Below, piece by piece: positions 1 to 64,000 of a stretch of DNA of 64,000 nt. The position numbers and the translations under genes were made by a program. Position 1 is the stretch's first letter. Every line of letters starts with the position of its first letter. Below the pieces are notes generated by a model. It was not told where the DNA came from. It saw only the letters and a list, made by a program, of their open reading frames with translations, and ran no database searches. The stretch comes from Takakia lepidozioides (Eukaryota; Plantae; Bryophyta), in assembly GCA_030704615.1 (NCBI GenBank), contig CM060734.1:29140001-29204000 (forward strand), read 5' to 3'.

Positions 1-6
1 GATGAC

Positions 7-10928: not shown

Positions 10929-10948
10929 GTCCCATGTCTTTCATATCT

Positions 10949-38412: not shown

Positions 38413-38879
38413 CTGATTTTGAAGCTTCTGGACGTGAAACAAAAACATTCTCAAGTGTATGTGCTTGCCCCTTCTCTACGAACCTCTTTGGATGCGGGCA
38501 TTCTCATGCCCAATGGCCGGGCTCATGGCAATTGTTACAGTTGCCTCTCCGCTTGAACTTTTTCTACGGTTGTTGTTTTTTCTGTCCATATGACTCTTTG
38601 GGTTTCCCCTTCAGCTTCTGTACATAAAAAGTTTTTTCATCACTTGAAGATGTCCCTTCTGCATTCATCTTCATCTCCAACTCCTCATGCAGCAACCTCC
38701 CATTTACAAGTTCCAACGTCAGAGCATCTGTCCTAGTCTCTAGAGCAGTAATGAGGTTGTGATAGTTCTCTGGCAAGCTTAACAACAAAATCATTACTAA
38801 CATGCCATCACTCACTAACTCTCCCACTGCATCTAGCTGTAGTGACAATTCTCTAAGCTTATTGATGTGACTTGTCATG

Positions 38880-39178
38880 GCGTCTCATGACTGCATCTGT
38901 ATGTTCATCAGCTGTCTTAGAAGGTATAGTTTGTTTGCTGACCTTCCCTGGGCTTTGTCTGAGCCCCCTTGTTGCCTTGAGCACGTTAGGGGGTCTGTTG
39001 TTGTTGGCTAGGAACCCCACTTCTTTGTGTCTCCTTGCCAAACCCCAACATAACCACTCGCTCCTCCACCATGTTGAGCTCTATCCGCTCTGTTAACAAA
39101 AACACATTTGCTAGGGTGGGTTGGGCCACTTGTAGGAGAGTTGCATCCCGCACCTTTCTCCTCAGCTCCTTATCCAAT
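38880..39178 (-). mobile_element. gag fragment of the DNMT-carrying Gypsy family (third copy)
   Basis: DKELRRKVRDATLLQVAQPTLANVFLLTERIELNMVEERVV versus DKELKRRVRDATLLQAAQPTLADVFLLAERIELNMVEERVV at ~59400-59525. Confidence 0.85.
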
Positions 39179-39489
39179 AGTCTTTCTCTTTCTCGACATT
39201 CGCTAGGTTTTTCTTCGTAGCGTCGGCTCGTTCTTGCTCGGCATCAGAAGACAAACCAGAGAATTTGTCGTTGCTTCCAGATGCCATTCTTTGGGTGACG
39301 AATCTGGATCGTTCTTGAAAGACTTTGCAGAAAATTTTGGGTTGTACAATTTCCATAGAATTTGTTTGAAGCAACGTAATTACTACTTCCCAAACATATT
39401 ATCCTTGAAACAGTAGGAGTGCGTGCACCCAACCTGTACGGTGTAACGCGTGTAGGTACTATTCCGTCTTCCAGTTCACCTAATCCTCT

Positions 39490-40116
39490 CTCAATGATCT
39501 ACAAGTTGATCGTGAGGAGAGAGACAAGTGCACTTCCACAGGAGCAGTGCCTTCTAAATGGCCATACTTTTCGAACATGGAACAAATTTTTGCTACAAAT
39601 CCGAAAACAAGTGGTGTGCCAGGTGCTATTGACGATGGCGAGAGACTAAACACCAAGTGGACTATGCCATAAGCTTTCGAAGGGCATGTTGATGATAATG
39701 TTGTGCCAAACACTTCGAGGTACTGCACACAGGATGATGGAGGTAATCCGAGGTGCACACAGGATGATGGAATAAATATCGATGCAAATGTGGAATGCAT
39801 TAATTTGGAGGAGGCAAGTCCTGTCAATATTCCGACCACCCCTACCACCCCACGATCAGCAAGAGTTGCCCATGCCGGGGTGGTTGGTAAACCAAACAAC
39901 AAGACCAAAAAAAGAAGGCGGAGCTCCAGTGGCAGCCCCAATGCCGCAAAATCCCTTGCTGGTGCTATGGTCAAATTTGGTGAATTCTATCACAAAACAG
40001 AGGTGGAGAGGATGCGTCAAACTGCGGAAATGGAGAAATTCCGCCTTACCATGCAACTTGAAATGACAAAGGCTTTGGGTGGACAATCCTCTACACCTCC
40101 CGCTCCTCCTGAATAG
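39490..40116 (+). pseudogene. Harbinger Myb/SANT (trihelix-like) partner protein, frameshifted
   Basis: STGAVPSKWPYF...GVPGAIDDG, a basic KKRRR stretch and a C-terminal coiled coil KTEVERMRQTAEMEKFRL. Confidence 0.6.
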
Positions 40117-40833
40117 CCATAGGGCCTCCAAAGTAGTTTATTTGCTTGTGATTTAAAAGAGTGCATTGTTGCCTCTTCATTGTTCAACGGTCCTCACTAT
40201 TATGTGAAAGCAAATAAATGATTTCAATTTGCAACCACTTCTCTGTACAATCAGATCACACATTTGTACCAGAGTCGTTTAGAGTCATAATTATAATTCT
40301 TACAGTCCTTACAGTACTTATAGTCCTTATATTACTAGCAGTCCTTACAGTCATAGATGCAGAATCATTATGGTCCTTACAACCCTCCAATGTGTATGTT
40401 TAATTGGGTTGTGTATTCTCTTATGTTCATGCTTGAAGCCCTTTTGCTCTTATGTTTATGCTTGTAGTCCTCTTGCAATCATTAATCTTTATTATGCTCT
40501 TATGTCCTTATGCTCTTGTGTACCCTTATAGCCCGTCTTATGTTCATGCTTAATTATGCTTTCAGTCATTACAACACTTACAGCCTAGAGTTCAATTTAG
40601 AATTCATTACAATCCTCTTACATTAGAATATCCATGTTTACATGCTTACAATGATCATGTCTGTTCTTAGATTCCTCTTATGTACATGCTTACAATTATT
40701 ATAGACATGCCCTTGCAGTCCTCTTGCAATTCTATGTAACCACACCACATGAGATTGGCCATAATTGTGCACCAAATTTATTGCTGTGTGCATGTGCAAA
40801 TTTTGCACCATGCCTTGGTTACATTGGTTCATA

Positions 40834-41997
40834 TCATCTATTCTCTAACCATTGCTGGAACAATGCTTGTCGCATGGCAGTGCCTGCACGCTCCGCCCGT
40901 TTTTCCCCCATAACAATAGCAGGCGGAGGCACATTAGGATTGTTGTCATTGTTCAAAGGGTCATGTGGCAATTCTCCTCGCCACACCTCCCCATTATCGA
41001 TGCAAAAATTGTGCAATACGCAACATGCCACAATCGTTTGTGGTGCATATGGTATTGCAACGTTTAATTTCTGCAATATCCTCCACTTGTTTTTCAACAT
41101 GCCATAAGCATTCTCGATTTTAACCCTTCCTTTTCGTAGACATTTGTCATATGCATTCTGGTCACCTGTGCCAATGGCCCTTGTATGATGAGGTTTTTGA
41201 CACCACGTTCGAATTGGATATGCCGCATCCCCCACAAGAAAATGAGGCCATTCTGCGTCACCGGCTCTAAGGAGCGGTTCTTTTATGATTACTCCAGTTC
41301 TCAATTTTTGCCACAACGAACTGCATCTAAAATGTGTGGTATCATGCGTTCCACCCGGTCGATTCACACACACATCCAAAAAGCATCTGTTGTGGTCACA
41401 TACACCTTGCATCAATATAGAGAACCCGCCTTTATGACAAAAATAATCGGCGGGCACATACTTCACGTCTGGTTGTCGCCACAAAGGAATTTGGGATCCA
41501 TCAATTGCTCCCCACATATTACGAACTCCTGTTAAGTTCTCAAAACCTGCAATGATGTCCTCTAAATATTCTCTGGTAGGCAAAAATATGAATTGACGGT
41601 ACAAGTGTGTTGCAAGAACAACAGTAATAAGTTTTGTGTAATCAGTCACAGTTGATGGTCCTACACCCATAAGATTGGCCACTTTTCTCACTGGCAAGTT
41701 GTGTGCGAGTCTAATCAAAACAAGGGCTACTGCATGTTTAGGGTGAAGAGGGGTTCTCATGGTAGTGATTTGTTTTTCAATGAACGGTGTCAACAGGCTC
41801 ACCAATTTCAAGAAGTTGATATGAGTCATACGGTATTCTTTTTTCCACCGTGAATCGAGCATGCCATCTCCAAGCTTCTGGCCAAATTCGACAATGGATG
41901 GTCTCCCACAAAACATATTGTCTGGGTAGTTTCCACCAAGCTTTGTTGCATCTCCGTCTCTTCCAAAGTCTTGCAAGCCATGGCAGCAAATATACAA
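40834..41997 (-). CDS. Harbinger DDE transposase (DDE_Tnp_4/HARBI1-like)
   Basis: YRMTHINFLKL, GAIDGSQI, PGGTHD, LVGDAAYP, RVKIENAYGMLKNKWRIL, CCVLHNF. Confidence 0.93.
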   Translation of the reverse strand: MYICCHGLQDFGRDGDATKLGGNYPDNMFCGRPSIVEFGQKLGDGMLDSRWKKEYRMTHINFLKLVSLLTPFIEKQITTMRTPLHPKHAVALVLIRLAHNLPVRKVANLMGVGPSTVTDYTKLITVVLATHLYRQFIFLPTREYLEDIIAGFENLTGVRNMWGAIDGSQIPLWRQPDVKYVPADYFCHKGGFSILMQGVCDHNRCFLDVCVNRPGGTHDTTHFRCSSLWQKLRTGVIIKEPLLRAGDAEWPHFLVGDAAYPIRTWCQKPHHTRAIGTGDQNAYDKCLRKGRVKIENAYGMLKNKWRILQKLNVAIPYAPQTIVACCVLHNFCIDNGEVWRGELPHDPLNNDNNPNVPPPAIVMGEKRAERAGTAMRQALFQQWLENR

Positions 41998-43175
41998 AAT
42001 GTAAACAGAGTAAAAGAAGTAACCCCTCCAAGCTCATCCTCACCCACATCTGAGCCAAAGATTAACCAAAAAATCAAATAAATATGCATCATGTACACCT
42101 AGTACTAACTGTCATAAACAGCTTGTACACTTAGTACTCTCCAGTATAACTCTCATGAGCTTGTACTCCTAGTACTTGCATAACTCTCATAAGTGTATCA
42201 CATAGTACGAGCAGAGCTCTCACAAAAACAGAGGCAAAATCCCTTGCTTGGGCGTGGCTAAACTCAATGTTGCCTCACATGTGCATATCACGTGTGAACA
42301 TGTTGCACCGTCCCTCCCGTCCGTCCCCCTTCACGCGTGCGGAGGGCCCGCCACTATGGCTGGACGGGACGGACGGATTTACGTCGTGTGAACCTGCCTT
42401 CAATCAGCAATCCGACATGAACAAGTAGCTTCAATTGTCGTGCGCTGTCAAAAATGTCTGGCTTATATTGATCATCTGAACTCTGGTGCGCATACATGCA
42501 CTCAAATAAGCGACATCCTGCAATTGCATGTGAGGGTGGGATCATATCAGTTCTTCAGATTCCATTTTGAAATTGAGATCTATCATGTAGATAAGGGAAA
42601 AAAAGGGAAAGGGCACTTCATCAGTCGGTTATCCATTCAACTACCCAACTGTTCAAAACTGAGAGTTTCTATTTGTAGTTTTACTCTTTTGCCCCTCTTT
42701 CTTTTCTATATCGGAAGTCAAATATAAAGTTTGCAGATTTCTAGAGACTATTGCTCAACGCACAGCCCAGCAAGGGGCCAATGGACGGTTGAAGGCACAC
42801 GTTGAAGGATTGAACCCAGGATCACCAAGTAGTTTCACCAAGTTTCCAAACAAGGATTTTGTGTCTTCCTCAAAATGCAGTGTGTTTTGAGGTGCACGCC
42901 ACCATGGACATTGTGGAGTGTCCTGGGCCATCATCTTCCCTGCCCACACTGAACAAACCGACCAAAAAATTCTTCTCTAAGTTGTGCCTGCAGTTTGGAT
43001 TCACTAGCAGGAACCCAGTCACACTCAGGCTTGCCTTCTCTAAACTCACTGTGAGATACATTAGACAAAACTACTGCTGATCTCTTCCGAGTAGACTGCA
43101 TGTTTGAATTAGCCATCTCAAATAAGCCTCATGGAATAGCTTACGCCTCCATCCTACACTCATCTAACTCTGTGT

Positions 43176-46100
43176 TCACACCATCTGCAGCTTTAACACC
43201 GTACTTTTATGACAATCAAACTCCTGAGCATCGTTCGGACCATTCTCTCCTTCATCCTCCGACCTCCTTCCTTTCCAGCTGGTGCTCTCAGATTTTCCTT
43301 CTTCTCCACTGCTATCATCATGGTAGATGTCGCTGCTAATGCCCTGGGCCCCACCTGACAGTTGGTTCGTAATCTGCAAGGGTCCCTGCAGGATGGTCTA
43401 CCTGGTAAGCATACCGACTTTATCCAGACTAATCAATAATATGCATGCACTCAAAGGACCCAATCATTGACCCTAAAGGTTTCCTCATGAAAAGCAACAA
43501 ACCACAAGTCAATGGAAACTATGTTTCACTGAAGCAAATTGCATATTTAGAGTAAAACTCCAGACTTACATTTCAAGGGGGCCCATAAAAGAGGAAGATG
43601 AGACCACACAAAGTTCTTTACAATCTTGAAGGATATGCTAGTTCAAGTATAACCAAAATAAATCTAATAATTAAGTTCTAGTATTGACAATGACTCAAGT
43701 CAATCGATAATTGACAGTCGACGGCAATCTTGCAGTACATCACAAGCTTACTTGTGGGGAGCTCTGGGTCTGGGAGGCAGATTGTTGTGGTTCAAAGCAG
43801 GGAGGGTGGTGCATGTGGAGAGGACCTCCACTTTTCCCTTTGTTCACACCAGAGAAATACTCTTCAGGGAGAGAGGGTTGGCGATAGTGTGACTGTTGAG
43901 TGGGGGTGCTGGACGCGAAGTCATAAGGGCCCCCTGTAGATGGCTGAGTGGCTGCCACTGCAGCCTTCGCATACTGTGGTGGTACCCAAATCCCCCCTAG
44001 CACGACCAGCTGTGGTGTTAGCTGAGGTGCTCCTGTTTGTGGAGATAGGCTAAGTGGTCTTCGGGTGTGCAGCCGATATTTCTGCACAGCAGATAAGTCC
44101 ACTGCACATTGTTAGTCCTAATGAACAGCATAAGTGAACTGACATATAGAGAAGCCCTAAGTTGATTTGAAGTTGATACAGAAGAAAACAAAGTTATTGT
44201 CCTTGCATGGTGCCAGGTGTAGGAAACTGGGGCTGACAGAAACCTCTATGGTAACATCAGCAATTTGATATCTGTCACATGTGAGCATGGCCTAAATTGA
44301 GTGTTGGGACGGACTGTACTGTGGATGGAAGAAAGGAGTACCTGTAGATGGCTCTTGACTTCATCATTTGTAAGTCCATCAACCTTCATTAGTTCTCGAA
44401 TCTGCTTTGGTGTGGCAACTGAACAAAATAACACAGCAGTTCAATCATGATGCAGCAAAGGTATAGTACTACTAGCTAATTAATGTAGTCCACTCTGCAG
44501 AAGCATGGACAATACTATCCCCTCTGTGTGGATAAAACAACAACCACGAGGTTTCAAAGCTCTCCCACATAGCACCCCAGACTCGCACTTTTCTAGACAG
44601 GGAAATGATGCAGGCTGGAGGCTTGCAGCAATGATGAAGGTCACTTGCTTCTATTAGAGCATTGATTGTACCTTAAGTTTGCTTAACCCTTCTATAGCAT
44701 TCAGCTCCTTATAAATTAGGATTAAAACTGCCCCCTTACCTAACCGATACGATCCAAACAAGCTCACAGCATTGGAAGCCCTTCCAAACAGGAAAGATAA
44801 TGTAAGTGCATATTAAACTCCATCTGTAAATGGACCACTTGAAGGGACAAACACTTTGAAGGCAAAGAAAGGTTAACAACCTTGGGAGCCGCCAAGCTGC
44901 TGGAGAGCACTTACAAACCGGCCGTGAAGCTCAGGTGACCAACACCTGCATGAGAACATTACAATAACAACAATTTCTGAAAGTCAGGTGCAAGTGCACA
45001 GAGGGATTTATTTTTGAGTGGGAGGTCATCACACTAGGCACTACTTGGTCGGCCAGGTTCTAAAAAATGTTCACAAACTGGTGGGAGGACCCCGACTCTG
45101 ACAGCAAGCCTAGTTGTCCACATCACCTTACACTAAGTCAAAGCGTGCACCATCTTCACAAAGTTCTGAAGTCAGAAGACAATACCTTCGCGATTTGCGC
45201 TGTGATTGACTACAATTGGTACTCATTGCCCCAGACACTCCATTTGACGTTGGCCCCATATCCTTGCAGCCTAGTGCATCCAGCTCTTGTTCTGGTGTCC
45301 GTAAGTTTATGTCAATGCTTCCAACCTCTGATTCAGCTGCGCCAAAGACATGACCATTGGGGCTAGATACCCGTTCCACAGACAAGAGGCCACAGTCAGC
45401 CCCAGTACTCCCCATACCACCTGCAGGCTGTGCCATAAGGGGTGCAGTGGCTAGTGGCTCTCTTATGAATGGTTGGAAAGCCCCCACTGGTCGATGCCGT
45501 GGCCTTAGGAGAAGTTGTGAGGTAGTGATCGAGCTCTGTTCCTGCTCCGGTTGTGCAAGATCCGACAGTCTACGGACATCTTCCCGTGATGATTCCTTCT
45601 GTTTGGTCAAGCAACGAGGAGTCACAACCGAGAACATCTCTTCACAATATTTCCCACTTAGACCTACCTGACCATACATCTCTGCAAGTGAAACTCTGCC
45701 AAATTGCATACTTGCAGGGCGATGCTCAATAGTACTCCAAACGCTGTCGCTAGGCACATATGCAACTGACTGCAAATGATACATGACATATTCATGGCAC
45801 CCTACTAGTAGACAAGCTTAGCTTTTTGTATGAGGATCTTACACACCTTGTTTGAGAGGTCCGATTGTTTGGACTGTTGGGTCCAGAGTTGAGCTTCTGC
45901 GATCCAGGAAGGTCGTCCTTCATCAACCCCACTTTGGGCAGGCTGTTCCATTGGTTGATCTCCTTCATCATCGCCCACGTCTTCTCTATGGTGTCTTTCC
46001 CACCTCCTCTTCAAAGGCAAGAACTCCTCCAGCATCGGTCTCCCGTTTGGGCTCTCGGTATCACTCTCTCTCTCCTCCAAAGAATTGCAATGAAGCTGAA

Positions 46101-46629
46101 GGTGTTGTAATGCTGTGGGAGAGCTTGGCTGACAGTCTACAAGCTGCTCCTTGGACTTCTTAATGGCTGTGCAAAACAAGTTATAAAGTATTAGTTGCGG
46201 TGCCATAACTCGTCACTGAGATCATAATGGATACATTTGACCATACGGCATATGGTATAGAAACCAAGCTATGGCGAACCATTGAGATGCTCATGGTAAA
46301 GAGTAAAATTGGGCACTTCTCTCTCTCTATCTCCTTCTCTGTCCCCACAATACATCGTGCAAACTCCAGGGACAATCAATCCTTCTCAAAAATAGGGAGA
46401 TCTTCAACCCACCATCATCAAGTAGCTGCATGCAAAGGGGAAGCTCTCGCTTAAACGCTTCAATCTTGTGCCGTTCATCCTCAATTGCTCGTAAGTACTC
46501 CTCTACCTTTTGCATGTGCTCTAACAGGTTTCCCACAAAGGGTGGGCCAGTTTTGCACACGGTGGTTGTGGGTGAATTACTCCTAGGCACTTCAGTGTGG
46601 CCTAAGGTGAGGTCAGATGGTGAACCCAT
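43176..46629 (-). CDS. GARP G2-like MYB transcription factor of the HHO/NIGT1/HRS1 group (about 7 exons)
   Basis: N-terminal [47 protein letters not shown] domain RKSRR|[21 protein letters not shown]|[26 protein letters not shown]|KYRLH; [13 protein letters not shown]. Splice phase checked at the RKSRR|CWSPE junction; other exon borders approximate. Confidence 0.93.
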
Positions 46630-49600
46630 GGTCTCTTCATACACCAGCAGCACAAGAGTTTCTTGAACCTGACTGAAATCATGTGCAACTTAGTGTTATT
46701 CAGCTTGTCACCATTCCAAAGAAAAAAAATGTTGCGAATGAAATCCCTTTCAAAGCATGAATATAATCTAGAGTTCATGGTATGACATATGAAGCAGTGA
46801 ATCAATTGACCGCCAGAAACTGGACCTAGGCCATCTGATCTTCAGTCCAAAAATATGGACGAATTTTTCGAATTATTTGAGCCCACCCACCCTGGAGAAA
46901 TGAAATGGTGCTTTATAACGTCCGAGGGAAGCTCATAGAGCTTATGGGACAAAATAGAAGAAAACATGAGACCAAGAAACCCACAACGGTTGGTTTCACC
47001 TTCAAGTTAGATCAAACCTCACACCTATCAGTTTGGTAAACCATGTGACGCACTGGTTCAAACAAATTTTTAATCTGAGCCAAATGTTAAGGTTGGATTG
47101 CCCTGCTTATAAAATGCAGCACCTTTCAAGACATTGAACTATTGCTCAAGAACTACTGATGCCCACTGCTTTACAGCAAGCATAAAACAGTCGCGACCCT
47201 CCTTTTATGTAGAGGTCTGATTTGAGCTTTTCAACCGAATGACTTTTTGGACGACTTCATCCCCACGTATTTTGCGATTACTTCAAAAGTCAACCTGTAA
47301 CTGAGAAACACAGAGCCTTAACTGCCTTTGAGATCAACGCTGGTTTCAATCTCTGAATACTTTACAAACTGACAAAGCGGTCTCGCTTTAGTCTTTGACG
47401 CAGGGATCCAAATCAGAGAGATTGACAACTGTGGTGCCAGTCGAAATAACACCCAGAGGTAGACGTCATATTTGCGGACTTTTTGAAAGCTATGCCGTGG
47501 GTGCTTCTTTTGCAACAAGGTGGGGATGGAGAGTACATTATTCACTCCTTGACTGAACGCTGTTTCAAAAGTAAGGCTTGGACTAAACATTTGCAAGAGA
47601 AAGAGGACAAACGCTGACAAACAAACCAAGGTTGAAAGTGGAGACCGGCCGACGATATTGAGACATCCAACATCCATAAGAAAGGGAAAGATCATGCCCT
47701 CACTGAACTGCACGAATATCATCGCCTGGCCATGGACCCAGTAACACAGATAACACGTACAGCATGTGAGTGTTTAAAAGAGATATGTAGATACCTACGG
47801 ATGCGCGAGTATATTAAGCAGCTGGGCAGCTAAAAGGCGCATTTGCTACTCAATTGTGGCCTCGTTGATTTTCCCTCCCAACTGCAAACGAAACCTCGAG
47901 CAATCCGTCGTCGTGCGTCAGATGCACCGCCTGCATTTGCTCCTGATTATTGGAGCCTCAAATTCTTGATCACCAATTGGATGTGCTTGAACACACCCCC
48001 CCAAATTCTCATGCCACACTGTCGATCTACCTTTACAATCCACCAGGAAACGATAAAGCTCCTCCCCCTACGCCTTACTTTGCCTTCCGTTCTTCGTTCT
48101 TCTGGAAGGCTGTGCACCTATCCTCCAATGTGCGCGACTGTTGTCAGCCCGGTTGCTTGCATCCCAGTTACGAGACTGTAGAGGTGCCCTATATCCAGTT
48201 CGGATCAGAATCATGCCGGGCAGACCTGCGCTGCCACGATTCCATGAGGGATTTTAAATCCCGGCCGCTCTCTAGGGTTCCGTCTCCGGGATATCCAAAC
48301 CCCCATGCAGATCTCTCATCAAAACATGATTCAGGATCTAGCATCTCAGTATCACATCGCAGCCGCTCAAATAAAGATTCTGTTATCGGTAGCTTTGATG
48401 CCCAATATTGTAAAGAGACCATCGCGGAATGGTTTACAAGGCGTCTATTTTTTGAAAAAAGGATGTCGGACATAGGGTTCGCTACGATATGGGAACACTG
48501 GGCCAGTCTTCCCATTCTCGGACCCAAAAACATATAATATACCAAACGAATCCACCCATCCATATGTTATTGATTTATTTCAATAATTATAAAAAATATT
48601 TTCAAGAGTGCTCTTTGCTCTCCTGGCCGGTCAAACCTCTTTCACCATCACTTACAAGCTTGATTTTGTTGACCGCCCGGCAATGTCACTCCCCCATTAT
48701 ATCTCACCTCGGATCAAGTATATCTCTGTAGCACCTGCATATTCTTGTGCTCAACTCCGACGCCGGGTCATACCATATGCAGGTGTCTTTTTGTGGATGT
48801 TCCTTCTTCCTCCTCTTTCCTAGGGTGCATGTAGACAATTCAAACCGTGGCACGGCAACACTGGCAGCCTCTCATCAAAACTAACTCTCCAGACAAAGAC
48901 TTAAAACATGTGATTGGAACAAAGGAATATCTGAAGCAACAAGGTATCAAGCATTCCAGCATATATTCAGGGCATCTCTGCTCCCTTCCCGGTTAGGAAT
49001 TGCCTGACTAATGCGCCCCAAATTCCAGGTTTTCCAAGTACCCGGGCTTTTTGTGCATCCCACAAAAGATTACTAAATTGGGCTACTTGTACACGCCTTA
49101 TCTTCGTTCATTTGTTGTTGCCGGGCGCATTGCAAGGGCACCTTGACGGATAACACCCTTCCGGAGTTTAGCGTGAATCTACTTACACTGAGCCGGCTTC
49201 GAGTTTTCACCGCCCCAACGAATCCTCCAGACTACAATCCACGCATGCTGATGGCACTACATTACCTGTTGGTACCATGTCAGCTCAGCCAGAGCATGAG
49301 AAATAGCCGGCGGGAGCACAATTCGTGGTTATAGGGGTAATATGTTTGCAAACGGAAGTACAAGCCATAAGTGGACATAGGGTACTGATGCGTTAATAGG
49401 GTGAGTTATGGTATTTTAAACAGAGATAAACCTTTACTTAGAATTTTGGAAATGCGAAAAAGTTCATGGCTTCTTGAGGTTACTTTTCCCTCCTCTAATG
49501 CAATTGGCTCTCATTTTAAATTAATTGGGTCTTTAATGCGCTGGTGGGACCCGCTAATACTGGGCTGCGAGGGTCACCTGCAAGGCCAGGTACCCTGGCT

Positions 49601-51778: not shown

Positions 51779-53529
51779 CACTACAGCAAATGGTGGGGGT
51801 TTGCGACACCAGCCCCGCCCCCATGCCCCGCGCGGCGCGAGCGTGCGACGCCAACCCACAGCACCTTTTTGCGACGTCGGGCCGTCGCAAACAGACCCCG
51901 CGGGTCGTCACCTAGCGCCGGGGCCAGGCGGCGATGCCCGGCCGTCACACGGGCGCATGAAGGGCAGAAGGCAGCCCTTTCTAGCGACGGCAAGCGTCGC
52001 AAGCGGAAAAATGCAACCTTTTCTTGCCCTTTTTTTCATCGCAGCCCTTTCTTGCGACGTCAGGCCGTCGCATGGTGGCATGAAGGGCAAAAGGCCCCTG
52101 CGACGGCCGGGCGTCGCAAACAGGGGCTGCCCTTTTCTTTCAAAACAAAAAAAAAAACAAGTCGCAGCCTGCGACGGCGGTCCGTCGCCGCTTGCGACCC
52201 CCGGCCTCACAAATCCAAAAGAATGTGACGCGTTGGTGTCGCAGGCAACGACAGCAGGGCTTTGTAGGTTTAGGTTTAGGGCCTTTGTGGGTTCTTAGTT
52301 TTTTTTTTGTTTTTTTTTCATATGGTACTAGGGTAGGGTGTTTGTTTTTCTTTATGGTGTAGCTTGTTGTTGTGGATCTTCTTGTAGATTGTGACATTCA
52401 TTTTGATAATTCTCTTGACACCACTTCTGTATGTGTTGCTCCAACATATTCATTGCTTCTGCCTTCTTTCTTGAAAGACTACCAGCCACAGCCATATTTG
52501 ATCAATCACATAACTAAGCTACAATATGCATGTGCATGTACAATCAATCGAAGGGATGGGTACAGTTCGGTGCGAGAATTATTATGTAGCTTTGATTACG
52601 TATCTAATCAACTTGAACATCATCATCCGGAGCTTCTTCATCCTCATCAAGTTGTAAATCTTCTTGGTCATCGGAGTTATCGTAATAAATGGCCCGGCCC
52701 TCAAAAGGCACCTCCGAATCATCCTCCACCTCGTTGTCAATGTCGTGCCTTCATCTCCTTGTCCAACATCCGTATCTTCTGGAGCTTCATCATATAGGGT
52801 CCGGGATGCATTCTCCGGGGCGTCATCATCCTTTTCTACCCCCTCTACCCAAGCTCCATCATCACCATCATTATGACTTGTCTCTCCTTCCACCGCAATT
52901 GCCTCACCCCATGGAGATCCGAGACCATGATAGATACGTCTTCCTCTTGGCTGAGCATACACAACCACCTTCCAATTTCCCCTTCTTGTTTTGTCATCGG
53001 AGAAGAAAATTTGTTCCATGTCTGAAGGCCATGAAAAAAGGCTCATTGGAGGGACGATGAGTAGGGTTGAGCCTATCTGCATTGACGCATATGAAACCAC
53101 AATCATCTTGCACTAGTGTTGCGGAGGGCCCCACAAGATGTGGCTGGAACCACCTTCCCTTGAAGAGAAGAGGCTGGTACCTTGTATACTGAAGTTGGAG
53201 TATGCTCTCAAGCTCTCCAATGTACTCAAGTTTGCTCATAGCAGGTCGTGTATTCTCCTTGCCCCCACGGAGTCTTGCCAATATGTGGCACACAAGCCAG
53301 AATCAAAGGTTGTTTTGCGCTTCATGTCAAGAGCACGAATGCGGAAATGACGACTGTCGTGCACCTAAGCATCGTGCCACAACATACATCGTTGTCCACC
53401 ACACAATCTAAGCACACGATCCTAGAAAGCTATACCACAATGATAAGAGATGAGAAATGAGAGAAGTAGAAGACAATGAAAGCTCTCAAAGCATAAAGCA
53501 ATCACATGAAGAACAAGCCCTAGTCCTTC
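51779..53529 (-). mobile_element. CACTA (En/Spm) transposon end with transposase C-terminal (DUF4216-like) remnant
   Basis: Terminus CACTACAGCAAA at 51779; many direct and inverted TGCGACG/CGTCGCA subterminal motifs to ~52250; YIGELESILQLQY...LFKGRWF...DDCGF...NEPFF...QIFFSDD...WKVV. Confidence 0.85.
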
Positions 53530-56500
53530 CAGCTCACATACACGTGCCCACACGTCCGGATCATCAAGGTTAAGAACTGTAGCAGCTTCTCTGCGAATGG
53601 ATGTAGGCAAATCCGACTCTCGGCCAAGAGAAGAAAGTATGGTGAGAAGGAGGCAAGTGATGCTTGCTTGCTTGCTGAACCTGTAGCCCATGGCTAAACC
53701 AGGGTAACTGAAGGTCCCAATCTCCTAGGTGTCCCTTCTGCAAGCCATACTTGCGCAAACCCCTCTTTATTGTCTGAACAACTCTCTCTGCCAAGCCATC
53801 GGCCTCAGGATGATCCCAAGAAGTGGTGCGGTGGTCTATCAAGGCCTTGTCACACAAAGCCTGAAATTCCCCCAAGAACTCTCTCCCTTGGTCCGTGAGT
53901 ACCTCAGCTGGAGCACCGAATCGGCTAAGCACACAATCCAAGAATGCATACGCAGCTCCCTCACTAGCCTTATCAGGCAATGGAACCAATTCAATCCACT
54001 TGGAGAAGTGCTCCACCATCACCAACACGTACTTGTTGTGGCGCATGGTCAGTGGCAACGGCCCTGCGAAGTCAAGACTCCACCTGTAGCCCAATCCCAT
54101 GATCGGAAGAGGGTGCAATTGTAGAGTAGGGGCGTTGAATGAAGCACGCACCCTGTCACTCACCATGCACCTAGTCACAAATTGTTGCACCTTTGTGTGC
54201 ATACCACGCCACCGATACTGCCCCTGCAGTAGACTATGAGTGCGTCGCACCCCAAAATGCCCCAACTCCTCATGGGCATTGCCGCACTAACCGTGCCCGC
54301 TGTGTTGGGTGAGGCACAATCCTCACTCAACCATCCTCCCACACTCGGAGCAGGTGTGTCCCCTCCCACTTGAACCTCTTGGCTCGTTGTAGGATCCAAT
54401 CCCTCTCATTGGCAGTCATAGTGGCTGTAGTGTCTCCAGTGCGGAGGTAGTCCAACACAACTGAATCCTCATGTAATCTTTGGCGCCACCTTGCTCATTG
54501 CTGGCCTCAGGGTCCTCAGACACTTGATCTACAGTCATCCCTGTTGCAGGTCCAACCTGGCCTTCCGCTGCCAGATACACAGAAATGCAGATGCATGCCA
54601 TCCGGGCACCATCTCCTCATCCGTCTCACCATGCCACCGAGCTCCAGTGTCATCCTGCTGGCTCGTGCATGGATTGCGACTCAACCCATCTGCTTTGCGA
54701 TTGACCAACCCGGTCGATGCACCACCTGAAAGTCATACTCTTGAAGGATGAGTGCCCACCATGCAAGCTTCCCCGTAAGCTTGTCTGATTCCATCAACCA
54801 CTTGAGTGGTTGGTGATCCGTGACAAGGGTGAAGAGATTGCCGTATAGATAGCACCTGAAGTGTGTCACGGCCCACACTGCAGCTAAGCATTCTCCCTCA
54901 TATGAGCTATACTTAGACTCTGCAACGTTGTTCGAGCGGCTAGCATAAGCCACTACGAACTCTCTTCCCTCATCATCCACCTGTGTGAGCACCGCTCCAA
55001 GCCCCAGCATGCTCCAATCTGTATGCAGCTGAAAAGGACGCCCCCTGATAGGTCGTCTCAAGATAGGCGCCGAGGTCAACCTCGCCTTGAGCTCTTGAAA
55101 AGCTTGTTCTTGCTCATCTTCCCACTGCCACTCCTGGTCCACCTTGGTCAGCTTGGTTAGAGCCTTTGCAATGGCACTAAATCCCTTAACAAACCGTCTA
55201 TAATAGTTTGCTAACCCCATGAAAGCTCGAACTCGGCTCACATCCGTGGGGCGTGGAACCTGTGCAATGGACTCTACCTTAGTCTGTTGTACCCCCAATC
55301 CTCCAGGATATATCATGTGACCCAAATACTCAATCTGGTTGTGGAAAAACTTGCACTTTCCCGGATGTAACTTCAATCCGTGCGCCCTCAAGCGCTCAAT
55401 ACCCCTGAAGGTGTCTCTCATGCTCTTCCACCGTAGCACTAAAGATGATGATGTCATCTATGTAGCACCGAGCAAACTCCACCCCTGCTAGAATCCTGTC
55501 CATGACTCTCTGAAACTCTGCCGGAGCGTTCTTAAGCCCAAATGGTAAGAACCGCCACTGGTATAGGCAATCCTTCCCGTGCTCATTGTTCCCCCAGAAT
55601 GCCGTCTTTGCTTATCCGCCTCCTTGATCAGCAACTAGTGATATCCGGATCGTAAATCCAACGTGCTAAGACCTTGGCATGCCCAATGGCATCAAAGATC
55701 TCCTCTGGTGTTGGCATGGCATACCTATCGGACTTGTTCTGACGATTTACAGGCCGGTAATCACCGCACATACGTCTCTCCGTCCAATTGCCAAGACATC
55801 CTTCTTGGCTGGCATCACTGTGGCTGAAGCATACTCTCCCCCAGATAGCTCCACCAAACCAGCCTCCCAAAGGTCCTGAGTTCTCATCTGAATCAAGGAC
55901 CTCTCCATGTCACTGTATCTATAGGGTCTCCGAAAGATTGGCGTGTCAGTAGCCAATTCAATGCGAATCTCTTGACCCTTCAGTGCTCCTAAGTCCTTCA
56001 AACTGAAGGCAAAGCAGTTCCTGTAAGCCCTCAAGAACCGCCGTATACGTCGTCTCTCTCCTCCGGTGACTATAGGTCCAACATCAGGCTCCCAGTTGTC
56101 CTCCGTGACTGCAACCTTGAGTCCAACAGGCTTAGAGGTAGAAGACGCGTCCCGTGGTGCTATGCTGCAACCTCTTGAGCAATGACCACTGCCTCCTCTG
56201 TCAGTGACAATGTCTCATCCTGCCCCATCATCCCATCCTTGAAGACCTCCTCAATCCGAGAAAAATCCCCAACCTGATCCATCACCGCCGCCTTGGCTGC
56301 CAACTCCTTCTGAACCTCGAGCACCTCCCACGTGTGCCATGGATGCGGCCTGCACCTCGTGGTCCTCACCTGCTCGCCCCCACTCGCTGCCTGTACCGTC
56401 TCGCTAGGCAGGGAGACCATGAAGGGAAGAGTACTCCGTACTCTGCGCTGCTCAGCCATAGCCAAGCTGATAATCCAGGTCAAGCAATTGAGATCCATTG

Positions 56501-59500
56501 CTTGCCCCAACACCTGACGATGTGATGCCTCAGAAAGAGATGGCACCGCCGTGGTACCTGTGGTAGAACCCATCGCCCGCTCGCGCTCGTCAGCATTGGG
56601 CTCCACTATTGTTGCAACTGGCTATCCCACAAGAGGCCAAGTCCACCATCCCGAAAAGCATGGGATCCTCGGAAGCTGAGCAGTGTAGGTAATGTTGCTC
56701 GTGGTTGACCCACCCTGTTGACCACTGCCAAAGGCGAACGGTCATCGTGTCTCACACGTTGAGACTGCCTCCCTGTGTCCAAAATACTATCCACTGTGAG
56801 GTGTGCTGGCCGCTGCACCCCATCAAATGCACGCTTGAGCAGTGCGGGTGGCATCAAGTTAGTCCACCATAGCCGTGGACGATGAGCCCATGACCCCACT
56901 ACAGCTGCATCCAGCAACACTGCTGATCCAAGCCACGACCGGACTTGATGCACACTGGCCATCACCCTGGCCCGAGAATCACCCATCAGTGGCACATTCT
57001 CCAAGATGTATGCTGGAGATACAGCTTGATGAAGCTGCAAGTGGCGCAAAATCCGCACCATCTCCCAAAACAGACCCGTCCTCGAGTCTCGCAATCCATT
57101 GCCATGCCCGGCTGATGAATGCCCTTGGCAGGGCCAACCTGCCACTACCAGATCAATGGAGCCAACCCGCTCCAAATCCTGCGCCGCGCCCCCAGCAACG
57201 AAATGTCGGCTGGCAAGGCTTGTTGGTATCCACGAACTGCAGACACTGACAACAAATCAGGGTACTGCTGTACCAACTGAGCAAAATGGCGCAGTGAGAT
57301 GCGTCGTGCAGTCTCATCCCTCTCCACATACAGGTAACGTCGAACTCGTACACCTGCCTGTAGTACTGCAGCCAATCCAGTGCTGATCCCGCCAAACAAG
57401 TCCAGAAGGCATATGCCTTCATCCGGGCACTGCCACACAAGAGGTGTGGTGTCCAATGGCGACAATTGAGGTGGTCCTGGTGCAATCACCGCACTCTCCT
57501 CTTCTCTTGACGGTACGAAGGCCTCTACCCAGGCTTGTTGTACCCGTTCATCAGCAGCCTGCTGCAAATCCTTGCTCGTACCCCATAATGGAGTGTGAGC
57601 AACCATGGCAGGCAACTCCGCCGTACCATGCATGTCATCCTGCTCTGCTGGAGGTGGCACATCCTCTGCATGGGCATTGCCTTCCAGCAACTCTCCAGGC
57701 CAACTAACTGCAGCTGTAAAGGCGGCTAGTATTGGCATCTTGCCCCGCTGGGCAGCCGCAATACCCCCAATGAATGTCACAGGGAGCTGTGCATGACGAC
57801 CATCCCCTGACTGCCATCTAGGCCTGTAGGATGCTGACTCCTCCCAAAAGTCCAGGGTGAAGCCCATGGGATATAACACTGCCCCACCAACAAGGACATT
57901 GTAAGAGACCGCGTCTGTCACAATGGCCTTGGCTCACATCACTGAGCCATCTACAGGATGATCTGGTTGTAGTCCAATGGCCAACTCACGCCGTGTCATG
58001 CCTCGAGCCTGCTCTGATCCTCCCAGAGATGTCTGTATCTGGAAAGGACAAGGCTCCATATCCGCCTCCATGAGGCCCAAACCTGCAATAGCAACTCTGC
58101 CCAACATCAGTGGCTAAGCTCCTGAGTCCAACAAGACCCGCAGTGGCCGGTACTTCTTGCCTGCCGGTCCACTCAAAGTGAAAATGCCTCCCTGATTGTC
58201 TAACAAGACAACTCCAGGTGTCACCATGGCGCGCTCAAAGGCTGGCCTAGCTGGCAGCTCCATCAACCTGGCAGCTGCAGCTTGCCATGGCGCAGCCGTG
58301 GCAGTCTTGACCCTCAAATCCGAGGATCCCTCTGCCACTACACCTTCCAGTAACTTCGCAGAAGATGAAGTGACCTCCCCACTCTCGCAGAGTGTTGTTG
58401 CTAGTCTGAACACTGCAGCTGGTCTTACCCCCGGCGTCGCAATCATGGTTGCCGAGAACAGTGGGGCTTGACACACAGAGGTGGCTGCCCCCAATAACAC
58501 ACCGGCTGCACTAGCCTTGGTAGCAGGTGTCAGTGCTACACGTGTAGCTCTCCCCAATGGCATAGTAACCTCCGCCTCGGTAACAGTCGGGCGAAAACTA
58601 GGTGCCATGGATGGCGTCGACACTGTCTCCGCCAATGTGAATGACTGAGGAAGCCTCGCCTGACGGCTTGCTTCCCCACGCTGTGGATCCAATTCCACCT
58701 CTGCACCTCGTGGCTCACGAACTCGTGCTGCTCCTCGAGTCACGGCTGCAGCAGACTCCACCTGCTCTAGTGGTAGTACTGCTCCGCACATGAATCCCAT
58801 GCCTCCCATATCTCCTCCCTCAGGAGCAGGAGGTGGACCATCCCGCCTGGGAGCCGGTACCACCTGAGCTGTAGCCATGGCAGCGAGCCTCTACTCTAGC
58901 TGCTGAAGCCGGTTGGCCAAGTCTTGGTCAACACCCTGACCTCCGCGTCCTTGGCCATGTTGAGCTTGCCCTTGGCCTGCACCTCGTGCCCGACCACCTC
59001 GTCCTCTCTGGGCTGGTCCACCTCGCCCCCAGCCACCATTGTTCCCTTGGAACTGGCCTGGGCGCAACTCAGGGTGCAAGTCATAACACTGGGCATCTCC
59101 ATGCCCATACTTGCCACAATGCCCACACTGCAACTGTGCAGGTTGTGCTTGTGCCGGCCTTCTACCACTCTCTGGGCAATCTCTCTTGACATGGGGTCCT
59201 CCACATGTCCAACATATCACCCTTGGTTGCTGTTGGCCTGCAAAAGATGCCACGGGCCTCTGCACCTGAGGTCCCCTATAAGCTCCATGGAACTTGGGTT
59301 GGGTAACCTTGCCCCCCTAACCACGCTGTTGGGCAGTCCCTTGTACCTGTTGGCTGGCAGCTGCACCTCGTGCAGGCATGTCCTTGCCAAATCCAATGGT
59401 AACAACTCGCTCCTCCACCATGTTGAGCTCAATCCGCTCAGCCAGCAGAAACACATCCGCTAATGTGGGTTGGGCCGCTTGTAACAGGGTTGCATCCCGC

Positions 59501-59569
59501 ACCCTTCTCTTGAGCTCCTTGTCCAAAATTCCATACCAGAACTGGACTGCCTGAGCTTCAGTAACCCAA
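53530..59569 (-). mobile_element. DNMT-carrying Ty3/Gypsy retrotransposon, copy B (both ends interrupted)
   Basis: gag with knuckles CWTCGGPHVKRDC and CGHCGKYGHGDAQC (58891-59265), protease VLLDSGA (~58120), DNMT (~56480-57420), RT (YIDD at ~55455), RNaseH, integrase (53570-54265). Confidence 0.93.
56470..57420 (-). pseudogene. DNMT3-like C5 methyltransferase domain, copy B (two small frameshifts)
   Basis: Motif I-II LLDLFGGISTGLAAVLQAGVRVRRYLYVE, IV GWPCQGHS, VI ENV, VIII HRPRLWW, IX ERERAMG, X LGQAM. Confidence 0.92.
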
Positions 59570-62500
59570 GCAACGACACTACCGCGTGAGCTTGGCGCGT
59601 GAGCGTGTGAGCGTACGCTCACACAATAATGACGTGGCGTGAGCCTACACTCACGCTGCTGACATGGCGCTGATGCTGACGTGGCGTGAGCCTGGTCCAG
59701 GTCATGCCACGTCACCACAAAGAAGGTGGGCCTATAACCGTGGAGCCCCCAACTGCTGATTTCACCACATGAAGGTGAAACGGATGAAGGGTTTTGGGCT
59801 TTCCTGGAATTCAACCTTCTGTTAACAGGAGCTTCATTTCGTAGAACTGAAATGAACCTCGTGTCGACACAAGGGGGATTTGGAGAACTTCAACAAAACC
59901 TCGTGTTAAGACGAGGTTGTTTTCCTGGAACAAAAATGAACTTCGTGTTGACACGATGTTGTTTTCTGAGAACTAAAATCATCCTTGTGTCAACATAAGG
60001 AGGATTTGGAGAACTTCAAGTAAACCTCGTGTTGAGACGAGGTTGATTTGATCATCTGTCTATCTGAAGGTAGTTTCTTGTGTTTGCTAATGAAAAGAGA
60101 ATGACAAACCAATGCGACAAATGCATTGACCCATGCATAGCAAAGATATTAGACGACATACATTGAGAGTCACTGGACTTGAACAGTCATTCCATTACAA
60201 GTTGTAGTCAAGGAAAACACAGATTTTTATGGGCTTGTATCCCGCTGTAGAAATGTGTTGACTTCGTTGAAACTCATAGTGGCTTGGTGAATGAAGAAGT
60301 CGCGCTTTGGATCACAAACCATCCTTCTCAAGAAGACGAAGTAAAGGTGTTTGCACGGTATGAACTTCCCTCTCTTTCCCAAACTACTTGAAAGCATACC
60401 AACAAAATCAGGACATGTACAATTGGGAAAATTGGAAACAGTGATTTCGTACGTCCTGTCCTGCAGCGCAGATGCGGATGAGATCATGGTGAAGACCCGA
60501 CCATACCCTGGATCAGGCACTTCCATTGTTCCCGCAACACGAGCGTGAAGCATTCTGGCGGACTCAATTTTGCCGTAGTGTTCTGCGGTTGGAGGGAATC
60601 GTCGAACCAGCTTCCCATTCCGTCTGGTTGGCCACAAGTGAGCGTCAGGCGGAGGTACCCGTGAACCGCTTCCACTTGAAGCACCTTCACGTGCAATGGA
60701 ATGTCTGGCTAGGGAGAAACCCGCCTCTTCCAGCATTGCGATCTCTCGGTGAGTGAGACCTGTGCCCATCTTCACAGGCCACACGGTTGGTGGAGTAGGC
60801 TTCCTTACCACGGAAGGCCTCACTGTACCATGCACACATCTCCCACAATCGTCAGTGCAGAACCAGAACTTGTGGTTCTTTGCCTCGCCTTGTCCGTAAG
60901 GGAGAAACAAACCCGTGAATGTAGGAGTGCAATGCGTTCTTTCCCTCTGGAGATTAATGATGTACATTTTTCATGATTGGTGGCCCTGATCGCCGCGCAT
61001 TTCACACGAGATCCAGCACTTGTGCGTTCTATATGCCAAACCTCGTCCAAGCCCATGGACTCGATTATATGCGGCACCACGTTCTGGTCTTCAACCATTG
61101 CAGTGACAATGCTTGATGCAGGGGTCCGGTCTGGGGCAGAGTAGCCCTCACCTGTGGATGTTCCGCAATTCCATCTCTGATCCAAGGGAACACGTGGCGT
61201 CGAGAAGTTCACCCTGTCCGCCCTATGGGAATCTGCATCCGATCCCGGAGGGGTGTCCAATTTCCGTTTGCAAGACCCGAATCTCTCTTCGCCTTCTAGA
61301 TGGGGAACTCTTCCCACGAGAGGGGTGCCATCTGCACATATGCTCACTGCCCGCGCTATTTTGCTGGGATCCCCTGATCTTCCAGCTGCCCGCAACATCA
61401 ACTCGCTCCTGTCCGGACCTTTGCCACCAAGGCCACCCCTCAAGAATGACCTATATCTGGTTTGCTGCTGCAGAGCACGAATGAGGTCATCGGCCGTCGC
61501 CGCATACAAATCTCTCCCTTTTTGCCGGATTGCTGCAACCAGGCATTGTGCACTGTCTCCGCAAGATTGCAAGAAGGCATGTCCGCCATCTCCTCAATGG
61601 ACATATGCTGCAAGGAAAAAAAAAAAAAACCGATATTAGGATTGGACCCTGAAAGATATATCCGAAGCACCCAAACGAAGGTGAATACAAACCACTCACC
61701 GTTGTCATGGCCGCTCCCCACTGTCGGTAACGGAAGTGCCAAAATGCGAACCAGTCTTGCAGTGCCCTCATGTTGTCCTCCGATGCCGCTCCAGATGAGT
61801 ACCACCAGGCACGAATTGTCTGGAACAATGTATTCGCTTCCCCCATAGTTTTGGCGTCTTTGTACTGGTTGCACAGTTGGCGATGCATAGTCTGCATATC
61901 TGGCTTGATGTATGTCTTTGTGTGTTTGTCCAGGGATTGTGTCCAATGGAAAAGACATGTACGTTCTCTTCCAGGCATTGGCACTTTTGGGTCTCCTGTC
62001 CTGAACACAATGCGGACAGCGTTGAAGTTAGCTTGAGCACTATCGGCCATGAAACCAACGAAATTGGGAGATGGGACCATAACTCGAATGAGAGCTTCCC
62101 ACATGAGCTGTTGTGAATCTGTGTCCTCTGACTGCATGTCACACACTGCAATTGTCATGACCCGCTGGTACACAGGGTCGTAAACATGACATGCCATTGT
62201 GGTCCAGTCTTTAACCCTCTTTGACATGATCGAACATAAGGAAGCAGTTGCCAAGATCGCCACCCTTCTGCATACGTTTAACCAGGCTGACCCCGCTGCC
62301 CTCACCTTTTGTGGACATTTTGAACAAGAACACTTTCCTGGCTCCTTGTCTCGGGAAAACGCTGTCTTGGATGTAGTCATACATGCTCCTTTTCTTCAAA
62401 TCCATAATATTGTCCATATAACCTCGGCTCCCAGAGCCCATTCTTAAAGCGTTCACCTGATTCCTAATGTTTGGAGAAGTCAAAGTTGAGAAATGGTCCA

Positions 62501-64000
62501 TAACAGTGTCCAAAGCCGATCCCTCCAGTATTCCTCCAACCGAATTTGATGCACACAGAATACGGCTTTCCAGAAAGGACTTGCTCACCCCCATGGCAAT
62601 TGCAGATGTGGTTCCAGTTGGATTGGTATCCAACTCTTGCCTTATCAGACGCGAGACTGTGTCAACGCTCTCCCTATAATCCCCCTTGGACACAGGGTGG
62701 TTGTGAAAACCGAAATGGACACAGGCTCTAGTCAGGGTTTTGAATCGATGCACCACATAATACATTCTGGCGCCACACAAAGCAAGGCAGCAAGGTGGTA
62801 CCCTACAGAACTTGCACACAAAAGTGTTACTGTATGGTGGTGTCACCCCAGGCTTGAATGGATTCTCACTGACACCATCCCATTCGCTTTGCTTTTACAC
62901 ACCTGACAATGCGAAGTGTCTGCATTTCATGTTCTCGCATTTCAGGTGCCCATTACAGACTGTTCGCCTGAATATGAGGTTGTCGTTGTTGTGAATATTG
63001 GAGGTTTTTGTGCGGCACCAAGGGTGCCCATCGTGCTTTTTGTCCATTCCTTCCAGGAGACTGGAAATGCCCCCCACGCGACCAGGAGGAGGTAGCTCGA
63101 AAACAGTATTACCATCAAAAGATTCCGGCAAGAATGCCACCCTTTGAATATTGAAAGTGCTCCAGTCTATCCCCCTCAACTCACTCTTGAATCCTGCCAT
63201 CCCACCCATGGCTTTCAGTTTAGGAATGACACTGGTGATCTCCTCCACATCTGCTTCTACATGTGGACATGGCTGATCCACGGGCGGTATTGCACATGTG
63301 TCATCGGAGGATGAGTCCGAAAGCTCAACTACAGTGTTAACGGTACTCGTCTCTTTCTTGACAACCACGGGTGTTTTCTCCTGGGCCACTGATGCTGCCG
63401 TGCCAGGAGTTACAAAAGATCCTGCAGACTATCTCAGAGGAGCACTGAGCACCCTGTATCTGCCTGGAGGCACTCTCCATTGTGTGGCTGGTGCAGTATG
63501 CGAAGGTTTCTGGAACACGTACTTGAGCAGTTTTCCATTGGCATCGTACACTTCCCTTTGAAGGAATAGAGTTCCATTTTCCAACCAAACTGCGTTGCGA
63601 GGACGTGTTCATGCACCAGCGCAAAACCATCATCTTCCACCTCGTAAGAAAATGGCACAGGTGGTCCTCACTGAAGAAGTCCGCGTCAAGGGAGCCCATG
63701 GCCTGGGAGGCCATATGTCGATGTTGCTTCAGAAAGTAGAGTTCACAGTCCGACGGTGCTTGTGAATGCAAATTGTGTGGGAGCGGATTTTTTGGCGTCC
63801 TCACAGAGAATTGCAGGTATCGCTCCGGCTTGCAGATCTCCTAACGCGGGTTTCCACTTCTGTGAAATGTCTCCCCATGCAAACCAAGCGCATGGTCACA
63901 GAGTGCCCAAATGCGGAGTCCATAATGTCAGCCCTAATCCTAGAATCCAACTGATTTTTCACAAGTGCCCCACCAGTGCATTCGTTGACAGATTGACTGA
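59570..64000 (-). mobile_element. MULE-like transposon encoding GCM-like zinc domain, DDE transposase and SWIM finger (continues beyond window; frameshifted)
   Basis: HDGHPWCRTKTSN...CNGHLKC; CKFC...C...HNHP; FDHVK...FMADSAQA...CLFHW (MULE CxxH); SWIM CTCPDF...CKH; GT-AG intron ~61609-61699. End GCAACGAC..GCGTGAGC resembles the end at 38390-38413. Confidence 0.8.
59855..60045. repeat. Five ~42-bp units each with a palindromic core
   Basis: Variants of AACCTCGTGTT(A/G)AGACGAGGTT at ~59855, 59897, 59939, 59981, 60023. Confidence 0.8.

Follow-up and report, generated by a model that had tools for sequence, protein, structure and literature searches.

A DNMT3-like cytosine methyltransferase upstream of a conserved, probably leaky stop codon in an abundant bryophyte Ty3/gypsy-type retroelement

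Does a plant retroelement encode its own DNA methyltransferase and, if so, at what dose would the enzyme be made? The question is raised by 64,000 nucleotides (nt) of the Takakia lepidozioides genome (assembly GCA_030704615.1, contig CM060734.1, positions 29,140,001 to 29,204,000; the whole stretch is hereafter the window), which holds two diverged copies of a Ty3/gypsy-type element. An earlier note, made from the sequence letters, described the copy at 53530-59569 (hereafter the focal copy) as a long terminal repeat (LTR) retrotransposon with a DNMT3-like C5 cytosine methyltransferase (DNMT) in pol, between protease (PR) and reverse transcriptase (RT), and reported such a domain in pol just upstream of RT in a second copy (copy 1, 1-5544). 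On balance, we favor a reading in which a leaky stop codon in this high-copy moss element causes the methyltransferase to be made and packaged at the level of the capsid protein, where it would likely methylate the element's own complementary DNA (cDNA) before integration. The domain map was made by tblastn with domains cut from database relatives, and comprises the following features (window positions; RH, RNase H; IN, integrase; TMV, tobacco mosaic virus).

Focal copy
59422-59580 (-): C-terminal part of Gag (tblastn with the Gag of Marchantia Mp4g09160, 74%)
59065-59214 (-): two CCHC-type zinc knuckles, nucleocapsid (tblastn 58% to Mp4g09160; translation)
57799-58212 (-): aspartic protease-like domain with stops and frameshifts (tblastn 56% to Mp4g09160)
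56442-57417 (-): DNMT3-like C5 cytosine methyltransferase, split over three frames of the assembly (PF00145 49.6 bits; tblastn 67-80%)
56154-56162 (-): stop codon TAG (56162-56160), then CAC CAC, ending Gag-PR-DNMT (alignment)
55320-56094 (-): reverse transcriptase (tblastn 52-81%; RVT_1 weak)
54708-55079 (-): RNase H (PF17917 120.9 bits; tblastn 85%)
53534-54274 (-): DDE integrase, zinc-binding and core parts, match 54274-53660 (PF17921 40.6 bits, PF00665 53.3 bits)
53355-53533 (-): right terminal repeat remnant, ending CACGACA at 53355 (local alignment to the end of copy 1)

Copy 1
220-1191 (+): DNMT3-like domain, open in a single frame from 340 (PF00145 49.2 bits; tblastn)
1467-1475 (+): stop and signal TAG CAA CCA in the RT frame (TMV-type CAR-YYA)
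1536-4385 (+): RT, RNase H and integrase (tblastn)
4439-4573 (+): PHD finger, end of the integrase (tblastn 49%; translation)
4840-5544 (+): right end, with B 4840-5028, GC, A 5031-5358 and B 5359-5544 (B copies 96% alike)

Fragment
39032-39182 (-): short gag fragment of the same family (83% to 59381-59531)

Both copies exceed the curated cut-off of PF00145 (DNA_methylase; 22 bits), with E-values of 6.5e-13 for copy 1 and 5.1e-13 for the focal copy; the Pfam scan of the window gave no match for Gag or protease. The best solved relatives of the window domain by sequence are DNMT3A, then DNMT3B/3C and then M.HhaI. A profile of 45 sequences matched human DNMT3A at E 8.6e-26 in three collinear blocks (motif I; motifs IV-VIII; motifs IX-X), and reached DRM-type entries at 2e-14 or weaker and M.HhaI at 3e-8. 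Because neither window copy has the whole domain in one frame, a fold model was built on the Calypogeia domain, which is 75% identical to that of copy 1. In comparisons of this model (predicted local distance difference test 96.3, predicted template modeling score 0.93), all 32 matches listed by Foldseek were DNMT3 structures, the best being the DNMT3A-DNMT3L-DNA complex 6f57 (E 2.6e-19, template modeling scores 0.70/0.83). Profile and fold are collinear with DNMT3A, and the motif order is unpermuted, without the circular permutation of DRM. The catalytic cysteine of motif IV, the glutamate of motif VI and the arginines of motif VIII are conserved in 90% or more of the 45 aligned sequences. 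The domain probably has DNA methyltransferase activity. DUF3444, a domain of host plant DNMT3 proteins, gave no Pfam match in the scanned window frames.

Codon comparisons indicate that the domain is under purifying selection. Between the two window copies, the ratio of nonsynonymous to synonymous substitution (dN/dS) is 0.21 for DNMT, 0.08 for RT, 0.08 for RNase H and 0.15 for IN (ungapped blocks of at least 45 nt, with the frame set by the best match to the intact relative L055). This relative belongs to the metagenome loci (L numbers), which are the best 80 of 296 confirmed stretches; between L055 and L056, dN/dS is 0.12 for DNMT and 0.11 for protease. Synonymous sites are saturated between L055 and copy 1, as they are between copy 1 and the Sphagnum-type loci (L031-L074 types, whose best matches are Sphagnum gene models), where dN is 0.2. 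A ratio of about 1 across the domain, an outcome that the earlier note named as refuting its claim, was not seen. Its descriptions of the domain as DNMT3-like, unpermuted and unlike DRM, and of its position just upstream of RT in both window copies and directly after the protease in the focal copy, likewise agree with the profile, the fold match and the tblastn domain order; in both copies the domain lies between protease and RT.

The placement in pol, by contrast, has to be revised. The methyltransferase is encoded in the RT frame, but a conserved stop codon closes its coding region before RT, so that it likely belongs to the Gag-PR product rather than simply to pol. In copy 1, the DNMT frame stops at 1467-1469 and the same frame resumes into RT. 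In L055, element-frame stops occur only at 973, 5083 and 8227; the one at 5083 is the lone internal stop in about 2,400 codons, reads TAG CAG TTA and lies 72 nt before the RT match. The corresponding junctions are TAG CAG TTA in L056 and TAG CAA TCA in L088. CAR YYA behind UAG is the hexanucleotide needed for TMV readthrough, which reached 32% in a plant reporter (PMC2754532). The second codon of the signal varies (Leu, Ser, Pro) while YYA is retained, and this pattern therefore points to an RNA signal. With equal base frequencies, the chance of CAR YYA behind a random stop is 1 in 512. Because of this low chance, the saturated synonymous sites and the junction flanks of L055 and copy 1, which do not align, selection is the most plausible reason for the match between two distant clades. 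The two clades that carry the stop may or may not be sister groups in the tree, and the stop may have arisen once or twice.

The stop itself is widespread. Among the 36 Sphagnum-type loci, 32 junctions are readable, and 31 of these hold a stop (TAG in 23, TAA in 8), the remaining one reading TAC; CAA CCC follows the junction codon in 30 loci. As a background, the maximum stop share among 1,433 coding columns of this type is 8/17. Proteins of Marchantia, Calypogeia and further database entries end 71-142 residues past the DNMT, with the exception of some fragments and spliced gene models, and several share the C-terminal residues of L088. L058 also has an in-frame TAG CAA CCA; this locus is decayed and stops short of RT, and was therefore not counted as support. 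An Rfam search returned nothing at gathering scores, and folding of the 100 nt behind the stop in six loci did not reveal a structure common to them (z -0.5 to -4.0). The stop and hexanucleotide make it very probable that ribosomes read through the junction part of the time.

A search with the domain found 73 proteins: Calypogeia fissa (75%) ranked first, with many gene models of Marchantia polymorpha (62-74%) and Sphagnum (56%) next, and Closterium, Chromochloris and Monoraphidium after them; 216 cluster representatives scored below 1e-30. These relatives have two architectures. The first is PR-DNMT-RT, with named members among the streptophytes. The second, RT-RH-DNMT-IN-PHD, belongs to a large sister group, with named members among the chlorophytes and all five domains present in 49 proteins; examples are P0048, P0053, P0064, P0231 and locus L108:7880-12430, and the named members are Chromochloris and Monoraphidium. 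The second architecture forms one clade in the RT-RH tree (79 rows; 100) as well as in the DNMT tree (97 rows; 98), and the window element groups with Calypogeia, Marchantia and Sphagnum-type loci (100/100). Both trees, built with FastTree with two long outgroup branches and without host DNMT3, split alike. Separate trees of this kind had been proposed in the earlier note, whose claim of a family feature rather than a one-off capture is supported. A second distant clade (L067-L110, e.g. L075:5492-14816; DNMT 35-42% to Marchantia) occurs in the same metagenome series; it has PR-DNMT-RT in one frame without a stop, and the same split repeats and 4-bp duplications. The search of IMG/VR yielded 30 loci, all with methyltransferases of the phage type that match at 31-51% across short segments.

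The host assignment relies on a kinase gene at 19312-23465 (+), which we take to be WEE1/Myt1-like. It matches Sphagnum at 83%; over its seven pieces, 403/533 aligned residues agree with Sphagnum, 341/542 with Calypogeia and 225/312 with Physcomitrium, and it pairs with Sphagnum (90/98) in a 14-row tree whose sampling does not extend to other early mosses. This tree rules out an algal host. The host is a land plant by this gene, and most likely an early-diverging moss, which together with the Marchantia, Calypogeia and Sphagnum relatives confirms the land-plant occurrence. In the host sequencing run X1, 54,416 contigs match window positions 1000-6000 with all 30 bins covered; this tally is not a copy count, and indicates a very abundant family. 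Run X8, from a second organism, contains one 5-kb contig covering DNMT through PHD.

The ends of the element were examined among 38 loci of at least 9 kb, in which no paired full LTRs flanking the coding region, the canonical LTR layout, were found. The focal copy is likewise not flanked by an LTR pair. The repeats are split instead: the order is A-coding-B-A-B in L060, L069, L073, L075 and L082, an A pair is present in L032 and L085, and copy 1 has B-A-B. Elements run from TGTCATG to CACGACA, with a 4-bp target duplication in four of the six relatives with both ends examined. The inner B/A junction consists of the right end, two bases and the left end (CACGACA-NN-TGTCA), and is also found in copy 1 (5022-5035). 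The term LTR retrotransposon thus fits the relatives' TG..CA termini and short target-site duplications, but not the repeat layout. These ends and duplications indicate DDE-type integration; the enzyme is an rve integrase rather than the tyrosine recombinase that marks DIRS/Ngaro elements, and it ends in a PHD finger (PF00628 is present in intact relatives) rather than in a chromodomain, a criterion for the chromovirus clades of REXdb (Chlamyvir, Tcn1). Tandem element copies were observed in L108 (1-3381 and 6557-9940, 99.8%) and L107 (6-4036 and 6665-10745, 82%). The split-repeat layout may give rise to such head-to-tail arrays; in L108, assembly is another possible source.

Both window copies lack the left end. 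Copy 1 (1-4078, +) and the focal copy (57639-53534, -) share 91.4% identity over 4,127 alignment columns, with 208 transitions, 65 transversions and 56 indels. Many of the window frameshifts are probably assembly errors because 43 of these indels are single-base, only one stop was found among about 960 codon pairs compared, and decayed metagenome pairs (n=3) have only 1-4 indels. The focal copy is truncated and broken, and it is dead because its gag-protease part holds stop codons in translation. Its 5' end is cut mid-gag at 59580 with no upstream match, and the sequence past this point is similar to another repeat at 38277-38426. On the 3' side, the integrase C-terminus and PHD finger are deleted: the alignment to copy 1 stops at 53534, mid-integrase, and jumps to the right-end remnant at 53355, outside the interval of the earlier note. 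This remnant aligns to the copy 1 end with a local score of 75 (shuffle maximum 64, n=200), and the same variant right end is joined to the element in the X8 contig (loose end at 4837).

Ty3/gypsy polyproteins are processed by the element's protease. In the favored mechanism, a single RNA would be translated mainly into Gag-PR-DNMT, with the full polyprotein as a minor product of ribosomes that pass the stop. The Gag to Pol ratio that retroelements require is about 20:1 (PMC2194720); readthrough would keep this ratio for RT and integrase, and the DNMT would escape it and be made at Gag level. By analogy to Ty3/gypsy processing, the enzyme may be released by the element protease and packaged in the particle, where a high dose would suit a slow de novo enzyme that has to mark about 9 kb of fresh cDNA. 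The element's own cDNA is somewhat favored as the main substrate. The PHD finger may steer integration by a histone mark, and pre-methylated copies could resemble old, silent chromatin, which might reduce harm to a haploid-dominant host or hide cDNA from surveillance. A wider scenario, which we put forward tentatively and consider rather less assured, is that an ancient green-lineage clade with split repeats, PHD finger and Ty3/gypsy machinery has carried DNMT3 since before land plants, in two polyprotein positions; that bryophyte members acquired a programmed leaky stop giving capsid-level enzyme, with hundreds per particle pre-silencing the cDNA; and that in mosses with thousands of copies this would be an input to the host methylome.

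Several observations weigh against this mechanism. The element is known here from DNA and translated sequence. The focal copy has one base fewer behind its TAG than copy 1, and its signal is therefore damaged. The Sphagnum-type CAA CCC matches the signal at five of six positions with an ATG directly behind, these loci are not independent (19/23 DNMT domains non-redundant at 97.5%), and the Marchantia and Calypogeia junctions are known from proteins rather than from the DNA behind the stop. In the second clade and in Closterium proteins, DNMT and RT lie in one frame, so the stop is dispensable for the element type; 11 of 29 second-clade linkers are fully open, others are broken at scattered sites, and the linkers of Closterium P0266 and P0253 are open. 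Decayed Sphagnum-type copies have dN/dS of 0.4-0.55 in all domains, the DNMT value being not above those of RNase H and integrase. Finally, the base composition carries no sign of self-methylation, because CpG observed/expected is 0.50-0.55 in both copies and not below that of other window elements (0.15-0.64); CpG depletion and C-to-T spectra are unable to tell self-methylation from host methylation. If the stop is real and RT-RH-IN come from a separate message (by an internal promoter or splicing) or from re-initiation, the DNMT would still be made at Gag level. Plant Ogre elements reportedly offer a parallel for a separately made RT message, an ATG stands two codons behind the stop in 30/32 Sphagnum-type junctions, and Candida Tca2 has a junction promoter (PMC2194720). 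This explanation appears improbable, given that an ATG is absent from this position in copy 1, L055, L056 and L088 and that the frame and the full CAR-YYA are kept across lineages with saturated synonymous sites.

The main competitor to cDNA methylation is that Gag-level DNMT acts in trans in the nucleus, on resident copies or host DNA, as self-limiting silencing or element competition, instead of or besides the cDNA. Excess enzyme would leave particles, the family is very abundant, and rate-limiting effects as well as effects on the host methylome are considered by de Mendoza et al. (PMC5890265); against it, the domain is without a chromatin reader of its own, the PHD finger being on the integrase behind the stop, and we regard trans action as unlikely, if worth serious consideration. 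A structural or nucleic-acid-binding role in the particle, or RNA methylation, would also fit a Gag-level dose and the lack of methylation by the Klebsormidium nitens domain in yeast, a result that its authors call inconclusive and that also weighs against the mechanism favored here (PMC5890265). The near-invariant SAM-binding and catalytic residues in streptophyte and chlorophyte elements, and the CG methylation by related SymbioDIRS-Dnmt3 domains (PMC5890265), make such a role quite improbable. Passive capture of a host DNMT3 exon, amplified without function, could account for the broken state of both window copies and for the stops in most Sphagnum-type copies (53/60 full-length DNMT domains from the loci). 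It is very hard to reconcile with dN/dS of 0.12-0.21, the same position in mosses, liverworts and algae, the congruent trees and the intact L055, and is given almost no weight. Methylation of the element's own cDNA by a Gag-level enzyme thus remains the explanation that we favor.

The rest of the window contains further repeats and genes. A Ty3/gypsy element without DNMT lies at 5957-10208 (-), with Retrotrans_gag, protease and RVT_1 and CpG observed/expected of 0.15. A SWIM-domain transposon (PF04434) at 59600-63428 (-), presumably Mutator-like, borders the focal copy on its truncated 5' side, and has a second copy at 37026-37703 (+) and 38277-38426; 42-nt tandem repeats occur at 59808-60049. 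A DDE_Tnp_4 transposase with a facing open reading frame (ORF) at 39673-42033 is taken to be Harbinger-like. By translation, a Copia-like element at 31254-35568 is split by an opposite-strand RNase H fragment like that of long interspersed nuclear elements (LINEs) at 31800-33285. Other features are an rva_4 integrase-core ORF (PF24764; 13949-14683, +, and 16313-16819, -), inverted copies of an element at 10742-11750 and 25763-26771 (92%, 1,009 nt; its ORF has no Pfam match), a sugar transporter exon (PF00083) at 29977-30570 (+), and exons at 45805-46689 (-), without a Pfam match there, that probably encode a transcription factor of the HRS1/HHO type.

These findings bear on a question posed in 2018, namely what role DNMTs carried by retrotransposons play. 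Land plants have the Gypsy-DNMT3 type, among them the liverwort Marchantia, a model species amenable to genetics, and L055 is an intact element. Marchantia Mp4g09160, Mp8g17980, Mp6g11220 and others, annotated as hypothetical genes, belong to this element type. The placement of the stop constrains the mechanism through a quantitative prediction: DNMT at Gag level, with RT and IN at only part of that level. In addition, DNMT3 counts and 5-methylcytosine maps of bryophyte genomes may include element-borne enzymes.

Among known systems, the closest is KnitGypsy-Dnmt3 of K. nitens, described with DIRS-like split repeats and purifying selection on its Dnmt3 domain, and for which methylation of cDNA is the role suggested by de Mendoza et al. 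(2018; PMC5890265). The present element shares with it the Ty3/gypsy order Gag-PR-RT-RH-IN, the DDE integrase, an unpermuted Dnmt3-type domain with key residues, the A-coding-B-A-B layout and purifying selection (PMC5890265). The K. nitens protein KFL_008410050 has the order Gag-knuckle-PR-DNMT and 25% identity over 365 aa to Mp4g09160 (PR and DNMT start; E 3e-17); this single partial protein, with too short a DNMT and without RT, was left out of the trees. Unlike here, where a conserved stop intervenes in the same frame, the DNMT of KnitGypsy-Dnmt3 shares an ORF with RT and RNase H; the land-plant host and very high copy number also differ (PMC5890265). The paper regards the element as an acquisition of the K. 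nitens lineage, whereas the relatives found here span bryophytes, Closterium and chlorophytes, and its text, figures aside, mentions no PHD finger (PMC5890265).

SymbioDIRS-Dnmt3 and SymbioLINE-Dnmt of Symbiodinium are likewise retroelements with a cytosine methyltransferase, and SymbioDIRS-Dnmt3, whose domain methylates CG in yeast, has A-coding-B-A-B repeats as found here; these elements use tyrosine recombinase or LINE machinery, in contrast to the DDE integrase and 4-bp target duplications of the present family (PMC5890265). EpiLTRs of Cymbomonas and Euglena are LTR-type and combine a cytosine methyltransferase with a chromatin reader, but their DNMT is sister to DNMT4 and lies at the 3' end of pol with DAM and a chromodomain; their authors set EpiLTRs apart from streptophyte Gypsy-DNMT3 (bioRxiv 10.64898/2026.05.21.726589). 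Host PpDNMT3a/b also have an unpermuted DNMT3-type catalytic domain in bryophytes, carry DUF3444 and are not placed on the element trees (PMC6453930). Later papers, in their accessible parts, speak of streptophyte Gypsy-DNMT3 without naming bryophytes, and may cover bryophyte sequences in their trees. In a literature search that left most subscription papers outside reach, no description of the element in bryophytes or other land plants, of the stop, or of the chlorophyte RT-RH-DNMT-IN-PHD arrangement was found, and six Marchantia gene ids returned no papers. The junctions of copy 1, L055, L056 and L088 have the same in-frame stop and hexanucleotide as TMV type I readthrough (UAG CAR YYA; PMC2754532), and SIRE1 and RIRE2 also set protein ratios by an in-frame stop (PMC2754532, PMC2194720). 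In those systems the stop is at gag/pol, at pol/env or within the viral replicase, whereas here it stands behind protease and a captured enzyme (PMC2754532, PMC2194720). A DNMT3 carried by a retroelement is, as such, already known (PMC5890265).

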